From: a virus
Taxonomy: Duplodnaviria; Heunggongvirae; Uroviricota; Caudoviricetes
Length of the DNA: 6,131 nt
Virus record (IMG/VR): IMGVR_UViG_2690316166_000019
Reading direction: 5' to 3' (one strand)
In this document: one piece after another, positions 4,714 through 6,131 of the stretch
Position numbering within the stretch: position 1 is the stretch's first letter
Layout: each line of letters starts with the position of its first letter
The notes under the pieces: generated by a model
What the model was told of the DNA's origin: nothing
Database searches by the model: none
What the model saw: the letters and a program-made list of their open reading frames with translations, nothing else
Program-made: the position numbers and the translations under genes

Positions 4714-6097
4714 AGTACCTAATTTTGATTGGGCATATGCTATGGCGATCATTCCATAACAGATTAGGTCTAAAGCCTCATTTCTTCTTTGACCTTTCTT
4801 TAATCGCCATACCAACTTACCACCAGCGGGTTTTAACTCCTCTGCTGAAAGTTGCTCAAAGAAATCTGATGGTAAGGTACTACTGAAGCGGAGCTTAACC
4901 GGGGCGTTATCTGCCTCACTGGATAGCATCAGGTTCAGGAGGCGGCGTATCGTGTTCTTCTGTTCATGTACGTTTAGGATCTGTAGTTTGTACCCCGCCT
5001 GAGTACTGGTCTTGAATAGTTCACCAGTAGTGGAGCTGCTACCCTTGATCGGATGATACTTACTCCAACGTGTAGTGAATTTTTTCACAGTATCCGTAGC
5101 GTTACCGTTCCCTGCATCAATGAACACAGCCAGTGTAGGTACTATGCGACCTGATACAGTACTGAAATCCTGACGGCAAAACTGATCTAAATCCTTCCAA
5201 GCTGGGGCTTCAATCTTCGTACAATCGTGGGAGTAGAAAAACTCATGCCCAAGTACATAAATGTTCTTTTCATCAAAACCTAAAAGCAGACTTTCCAGCC
5301 TATCACCCTGCTGATCAACTGAAATACACAACGCTAAGGTACTTTCAGGAATTTTATAAAGGTTAAATTCATCTTCNNNNNNNNNNNNNNNNNNNNNNNN
5401 NNNNNNNNNNNNNNNNNGATTCTAATTGGAGAATATCTAATTCTTTTTGATACTCATCTTCGAATGGCAAGCCCAATTCGTTATTGTAAAAGGTTTGAAG
5501 ATTGAAGTTATATAGAGCATCAGCAAACTTTGAAACCATTTCAGTAATAGTATTCAGAGGTGAATACATTCTACTGATTTGATACCCTACTACACCCGGT
5601 TCCCCATCTGGATTAGTTGCAATCCATCGACCATTATCAACCATCTGATGCCGTGTATGTTCATCTATTCCCTCATTGCAATGAGGGCATAACAAACGAG
5701 TAGTAGTACTATCAGGAATGGATCTACCATTTTCTAATTGCTTAAATTCAAACGCTACTTGTTCCCATTCAAAAGTATATTCATGACCGCATGTGTGAGT
5801 AACAAAGTACCTACGTTTATCACTGAGGTTGTACTCAGCATTGATTAAATCGTCTTTATACAATGGCGTGGAAGATACAACCACCAGTGAGTCACTACCG
5901 AAGGTACTGGTACGTGCTTCTGCCAGTTTGATTGGGTTCCCTTCATCAGTGATTTCGCAGCTACTGACCTCATCTAACAGAACACAGCGTGTTGTGATAC
6001 CGCGAAGGTTCCCCGGCGTGTTGAGGTTCAACCAATAGATAAAAGTACCGTTCACCATTTGTGTTTGTTTAGAGTTATTGGCGGCGTTCTTATCATT
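4714..6097 (-). CDS. Terminase large subunit, lambda gpA-like (partial: N-terminal ~140 codons missing beyond 6097, C-terminal ~40 codons inside N-run 4204-4711, internal N-run 5377-5417)
   Basis: Translation shows a Walker-B-like CVLLDEV, Cys/His cluster (THTCGHEY...LLCPHCNEG), [11 protein letters not shown], and C-terminal [23 protein letters not shown], paralleling lambda gpA (VAGYDEL, ACPHCGEE...YLCEHNAC, TAYSPF, KKRRNEALDCFVYALAAL) as I recall it. Frame is open with gpA-like sequence ([15 protein letters not shown]) from 6058 up to 6097, so the Met at 6058 is internal. ORF-track pieces 5369..6058 and 4198..5331 are one gene split by N-runs. Confidence 0.85.
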
Positions 6098-6131
6098 CTA
6101 GACTGGCCCCCTGAATCTCCAGACAACCAGT
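6098..6131 (+). mobile_element. Terminal inverted repeat of an IS2-like (IS3-family) insertion sequence, left end, body extending beyond the window
   Basis: 6098-6131 reads TAGACTGGCCCCCTGAATCTCCAGACAACCAGT, which matches the IS2 left end as I remember it (TAGACTGGCCCCCTGAATCTCCAGACAACCAAT...) at about 32 of 33 positions. GC content jumps to ~55% against a much more AT-rich background. The TAG at 6098-6100 is the in-frame stop that ends the terminase reading frame on the minus strand. Confidence 0.6.

Follow-up and report, generated by a model that had tools for sequence, protein, structure and literature searches.

The window analysed here, one strand of 6,131 nucleotides, is the scaffold CXEP01000236.1 (6131 bp) from end to end, part of the Shigella sonnei draft whole-genome shotgun assembly GCA_001256535.1, as identified by an exact protein match. 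The 99-aa product CST16899.1 of this record is labelled Shigella sonnei. The window holds 5.6 kb of real prophage sequence (33–6098; 6,066 positions including N runs) between two multicopy insertion sequences. At the left edge, positions 1–32 (minus strand) are the terminal 32 nt of the left end of IS911 in reverse complement, with 100% matches in 2390 E. coli genomes. When this end is extended to 64 nt with the sequence of L006, a gapless IMG/VR contig of another assembly, an annotated "IS3-like element IS911 family transposase" follows shortly downstream. At the right edge, positions 6099–6131 (plus strand) are the first 33 nt of IS2. Both scaffold ends are assembly breaks: a short-read assembler is unable to pass multicopy repeats, and it halted about one k-mer into each element, at 33 nt of IS2 and 32 nt of IS911.

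Six N runs represent scaffold gaps (1180–1253, 2724–2746, 2866–3797, 3824–4095, 4204–4711 and 5377–5417). Compared with the gapless assemblies, the true gap sizes are 7 nt (41 Ns), 807 nt (932 Ns), 241 nt (272 Ns) and 436 nt (508 Ns). Two gaps are spurious and have duplicated flanks. Positions 1121–1179 appear again at 1254–1312, a 59-nt overlap, and the letters "tcagaccc" occur on either side of the gap at 2724–2746. ORFs that run across N runs (e.g., 2846–4192 and 4198–5331) are artefacts of these gaps and were left out of consideration.

The prophage part of the window carries remains of head genes and of a large-subunit terminase gene. Next to IS911, an FII-like head-tail attachment gene (33–316, minus strand) is indicated by a Pfam Phage_attach match that is weak and falls short of the curated cut-off. 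IS911 removes the final 13 of the gene's 107 codons, and the called ORF (17–316, 99 aa) enters the element. The intact 107-aa version is present in L006 and in the closed S. sonnei chromosome CP026802.1 (L012). A fused prohead protease and major capsid gene follows at 330–2307 (minus strand; Pfam Peptidase_S78 and Phage_capsid; L012 15233–17077). This fusion is one 614-aa ORF in the gapless assemblies and is broken in the window by the spurious gap at 1180–1253; the two window pieces overlap on L006. What remains of the portal gene (Phage_portal_2) and of a 176-aa ORF lies at 2747–4203 (minus strand), as identified from pieces outside the N runs that occur exactly in L012 and L006 and from the L012 gene calls. 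Most of this region is masked by the N runs at 2866–3797 and 3824–4095. About 50 nt are shared between the protease-capsid ORF and the end of the portal gene.

The visible part of the 3' fragment of a gpA-type large-subunit terminase gene (terL) occupies 4712–6097 on the minus strand and begins at residue 134. The assignment comes from Pfam, from the translation and from a corresponding 486-aa ORF in L012. This fragment, which has the N gap at 5377–5417 inside it, encodes the nuclease domain preceded by the rest of the ATPase domain, and its true stop codon is hidden within the N run at 4204–4711. Pfam GpA_ATPase matches with an E-value of 4.6e-34 over profile positions 97–247 of 247, and the start of GpA_nuclease comes next (E-value 1.5e-05); both matches are above the curated cut-offs. 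The frame is open downwards from 6097, and the first in-frame ATG is at 6058–6056.

An intact relative of this gene, in a Buttiauxella MAG (L003), encodes 633 aa and is 88.8% identical to the window at the nucleotide level. Against intact terminase genes in general the identity is 77–89%. The window gene starts at residue 134 of the 633-aa relative, and its first in-frame methionine corresponds to residue 147. Residues 1–133 are missing from the window, including a Walker-A-like segment, SCSQLLKTT, at residues 73–81 of the relative. In three uninterrupted relatives, from the Buttiauxella MAG and from viral contigs, the coding sequence is continuous across the site (...ttatcattcttatcgg...), and the likeness of the window to these relatives reaches precisely the junction. 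The minus-strand frame and the uninterrupted relatives thus agree with the initial annotation that the frame is open with homologous sequence to 6097. Its statement that the ATPase N-terminus with Walker A is absent on this side of the junction is borne out by the missing residues and by the GpA_ATPase match, which begins only at profile position 97.

Beyond the junction, window positions 6099–6131 are identical to the IS2 left inverted repeat (IRL) at 33 of 33 positions. In a megablast search, the segment 6098–6131 matches 18,250 places in 6564 records from 4486 of 5426 complete E. coli genomes. Identity is 100% at nearly all of these places, and the copy number per genome has a median of 2 and reaches 41. 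In an annotated E. coli example, an "IS3-like element IS2 family transposase" lies directly downstream of the match on the same strand. This copy is noted to have a programmed frameshift, and it splits an autotransporter gene. Because the match is directly upstream of a same-strand IS2 transposase, it is the left end of IS2, and the onward sequence in L006 and L012 is likewise that of IS2. The transposase would read rightwards, away from the terminase.

In the IS2-annotated records of the phage collection, the alignment starts at window position 6099 with the sequence TAGACTGG... The right edge of the window therefore divides as ...ggcggcgttcttatcattc before the boundary and tagactggccccctgaatctccagacaaccagt after it. 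The IS2 left repeat had been recognised as starting at 6098; the identity of the element holds, and its start is one base further on, at 6099. C6098 is the last base of CATTC (6094–6098), one copy of a 5-bp IS2 target-site duplication that reads GAATG on the coding strand and was identified by comparison with CP026802.1.

The first triplet of the repeat had also been described as the in-frame stop of the gene. A TAG is indeed in frame, read as the reverse complement of C6098-T6099-A6100 (CTAG is palindromic). In this minus-strand gene its place is 5' of the retained coding sequence; it limits the open frame there and stops read-through from IS2, and it does not terminate the terminase. Since the terminase is on the minus strand, IS2 takes away the 5' end of the gene.

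The same locus with an identical junction is present in CP026802.1, a closed 4.98-Mb chromosome. This accession is cited as S. sonnei ATCC 29930 (PMC9430107; PMC11331407). When the runs of called bases in the window are mapped to this chromosome, six of the seven occur exactly. The gene order is terS, terL codons 1–134, IS2, the 486-aa remainder of terL (L012 11775–13235), the 176-aa ORF and the portal gene, followed by the protease-capsid fusion gene, the FII-like gene and tail genes. The small- and large-terminase ORFs (L012 9541–10444) overlap by 86 nt in different frames. The terminase ORFs of the intact Buttiauxella relative (L003 1873–1958) likewise overlap by 86 nt in different frames.

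In CP026802.1, IS2 is complete (1331 bp; L012 10404–11734), lies in the orientation opposite to terL and differs from the annotated E. coli copy by four substitutions (99.7% identity). Its gene product contains HTH_Tnp_1, HTH_21, rve and rve_3 domains. The last 33 nt of the window are identical to IS2 of E. coli and Shigella, and the ATCC 29930 copy differs from that element in nothing of note. The two junctions read GATAAGAATG followed by TGGATTTGCCCC... and ...GGCCAGTCTA followed by GAATGATAAGAAC. GAATG is present at both ends of the element and occurs once in the uninterrupted Buttiauxella relative (GATAAGAATGATAAGAAC). A target duplication of 5 bp is as expected for IS2. The element thus has the terminal IRL, the full length of about 1.33 kb with an OrfA/OrfB frameshift-type DDE transposase, and the 5-bp duplication that characterise IS2, of which the full length and the duplication on both sides are read from CP026802.1; the window itself contains 33 nt of IS2 and one CATTC. 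The searches that the initial annotation had proposed, a comparison of the terminal sequence with known IS and a look about 1.3 kb further for the other IS end, a 5-bp duplication and the terminase N-terminus, give the IS2 match described above (100% identity, 4486 of 5426 E. coli genomes) and, in CP026802.1, all three of the far-side features.

Both sides of the insertion also occur in other assemblies. With the first 146 aa of the intact relative as query, a protein search finds an S. sonnei protein of 147 aa with 97% identity, which carries PF05876 and ends in a foreign, IS2-derived C-terminal tail (VDLPLYFQTSVIT). This protein is found on 21 contigs, including CP026802.1, which represent five or more S. 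sonnei assemblies. A partial N-terminal fragment of terL (133 aa) is found on a further set of contigs, 96 in number, with the label S. sonnei or E. coli. For a simple insertion, the expected far-side junction is ...GTAACCGATAAGAATG followed by the IS2 right end TGGATTTGCCCC. In four other assemblies, the contig end is the IS2 right end just past GAATG. On the near side, L006 repeats the window's own junction base for base and continues 86 nt into IS2. A protein search for full-length versus shortened terminases in S. sonnei returns fragmentary cluster representatives only. The insertion in terL is inherited within S. sonnei, because the junction and the N-terminal fragment recur across separately deposited assemblies.

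These comparisons decide between the two origins that the initial annotation had left side by side, a defective prophage inactivated by an IS in an enterobacterial host and an IS gained during propagation or cloning of phage DNA in E. coli. The second has general points in its favour: IS2 is resident in most E. coli, laboratory strains included, and the hopping of IS into toxic clones is a known artefact. It is effectively refuted by a record that is a contig from the whole-genome assembly of a bacterial isolate labelled Shigella sonnei, by an opposite contig end that is a second chromosomal IS, by the identical junction with target duplication in a closed 4.98-Mb chromosome, and by the presence of the junction in separately deposited assemblies, where it is not confined to one clone or preparation. 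The S. sonnei contig, the closed-chromosome junction and its recurrence all support the defective prophage.

A wrong join of an IS2 k-mer to a phage contig during assembly or scaffolding might be suspected from the poor scaffold, with its six wrongly sized N runs and duplicated flanks. The base-for-base junction in the gapless L006, onward into IS2, argues against such a join, and the closed genome with its proper 5-bp duplication excludes it; its probability is negligible.

In CP026802.1, the two parts of terL are separated by the whole of IS2, and a single intact terL ORF that joins Walker A to the rest of the ATPase domain is not found at this locus. The terL gene is a pseudogene and not a functional member of the gpA-type large terminases. 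It shares with the lambda gpA-type terminase the same GpA_ATPase and GpA_nuclease architecture and the same terS-terL-portal order. It differs from that type in that the gene here is split and presumably dead.

The window isolate itself could differ from this simple picture, with its IS2 having since mediated a deletion or inversion that placed the terL N-terminus elsewhere and left a true truncation. The window contig ends 33 nt into IS2, with the far side outside the window, and the 99-aa FII-like/IS911 variant at the other end is on record only on the window contig. In L006, the same IS911 end occurs in the same orientation about 9.1 kb further on, past the tail genes. The window isolate may therefore have undergone an IS911-adjacent deletion (about 9 kb relative to L006) rather than a new insertion, and this private junction could be taken to favour rearrangement at IS2 as well. 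IS copies of Shigella are also described as often recombining (PMC7373316). A rearrangement at IS2 is nonetheless very unlikely, as every assembly with a visible far side has a simple insertion and nothing in the window requires anything else.

Further IS damage is present in the same prophage in other isolates. In the S. sonnei contig L010 (GCA_900160415.1, FUDJ01000297.1, 1–1003), an IS1 end lies in the capsid gene, and the FII-like gene is joined to an IS2 left end 11 bp from the IS911 site of the window. The 114-aa FII-like variant that results from this IS2 junction is found on 47 contigs. Two different IS within 11 bp may reflect a local insertion hotspot or plain chance. In ATCC 29930, an IS1 (L012 2428–3180) is present in place of the serine-recombinase side of the prophage. 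Another isolate, represented by DAJTNI010000081.1 (L013 1–3176), retains early genes together with a large serine recombinase, and the early region of a third (L014 60–2029) contains an IS21-type element (IstA/IstB). Decay of the prophage is continuing, and its course varies between isolates.

This strain-specific damage agrees with the IS expansion of Shigella described in PMC7373316, where IS1, IS2, IS4, IS600 and IS911 are reported as expanded in all Shigella, with 229–348 IS per reference chromosome. The IS pseudogenisation described there (Hawkey et al. 2020) likewise involves IS1, IS2 and IS911 at strain-variable sites. The locus shares this pattern in the interrupted terL, capsid and FII-like genes of a single prophage. 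In Hawkey et al. 2020 (PMC7373316), phage regions are left out of the SNV phylogenies, the word "prophage" is not used, and a description of the IS2 insertion in terL was not found in the text consulted.

Searched against 50,697 phage records with megablast and blastn, the phage part of the window has no DNA match besides the IS2 end. At the protein level, the terminase is at most about 35% identical to those of the 50,697 deposited phage genomes, the best match being Escherichia phage DCP80. The window has no match in the plasmid collection, so there is no sign of a plasmid or phage-plasmid. Complete E. coli genomes contain only two prophage relatives, both distant (77–83%), and because of this the host is not a typical E. 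coli. The relatives found (L002, L003, L004, L005 and L007) are 73–89% identical at the nucleotide level; they are prophages or contigs of uncultivated viruses and come from the Buttiauxella MAG, IMG/VR contigs and two E. coli chromosomes. Related protein fragments carry the labels Cronobacter, Klebsiella, Kosakonia, Enterobacter and Salmonella. A prophage lineage without a DNA relative among the 50,697 deposited phage genomes is the only mildly unusual point of the locus.

The reading that best accounts for the locus is an IS2 insertion that splits terL of a decaying S. sonnei prophage and is vertically inherited, with loss of packaging as its probable consequence; it is assigned a probability of about 0.95. 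IS2 moves as other IS3-family elements do, by copy-out and paste-in through a circular intermediate. The 1331-bp element transposed into terL after codon 134, in the opposite orientation, and duplicated GAATG. The ATPase domain is thereby cut in two. Its Walker-A-like segment stays on the N-terminal fragment of 147 aa, and what is left of it lies with the nuclease domain beyond IS2, where the two lack a promoter and a start codon of their own. DNA packaging by the prophage should be abolished, judging from this domain split, since Walker A and the ATPase/nuclease part are on separate fragments with an oppositely oriented 1.3-kb IS2 between them. The insertion in terL is one of several IS events (IS1, IS2 and IS911) that erode the prophage differently from one isolate to another.

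A more elaborate version, in which the insertion was early and lineage-wide, immobilised a prophage of an otherwise uncharacterised lineage and left a useful gene to be retained, would make the locus a case of domestication and not of mere decay. This is an improbable extension; if it were true, S. sonnei would keep the remaining module because some prophage gene benefits the host.

On the preferred reading of IS2 insertion and continuing decay, the phenomenon is already known. Genome decay of this kind is textbook for Shigella, and public genomes already contain the locus in annotated form. The main value of the result is in annotation hygiene: the contig is an S. sonnei prophage remnant bounded by IS911 and IS2, and its terminase is a pseudogene. 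The locus adds one concrete case to the well-documented IS-driven decay of Shigella and leaves current understanding unchallenged. The strain-variable IS sites within this one prophage could act as lineage markers.
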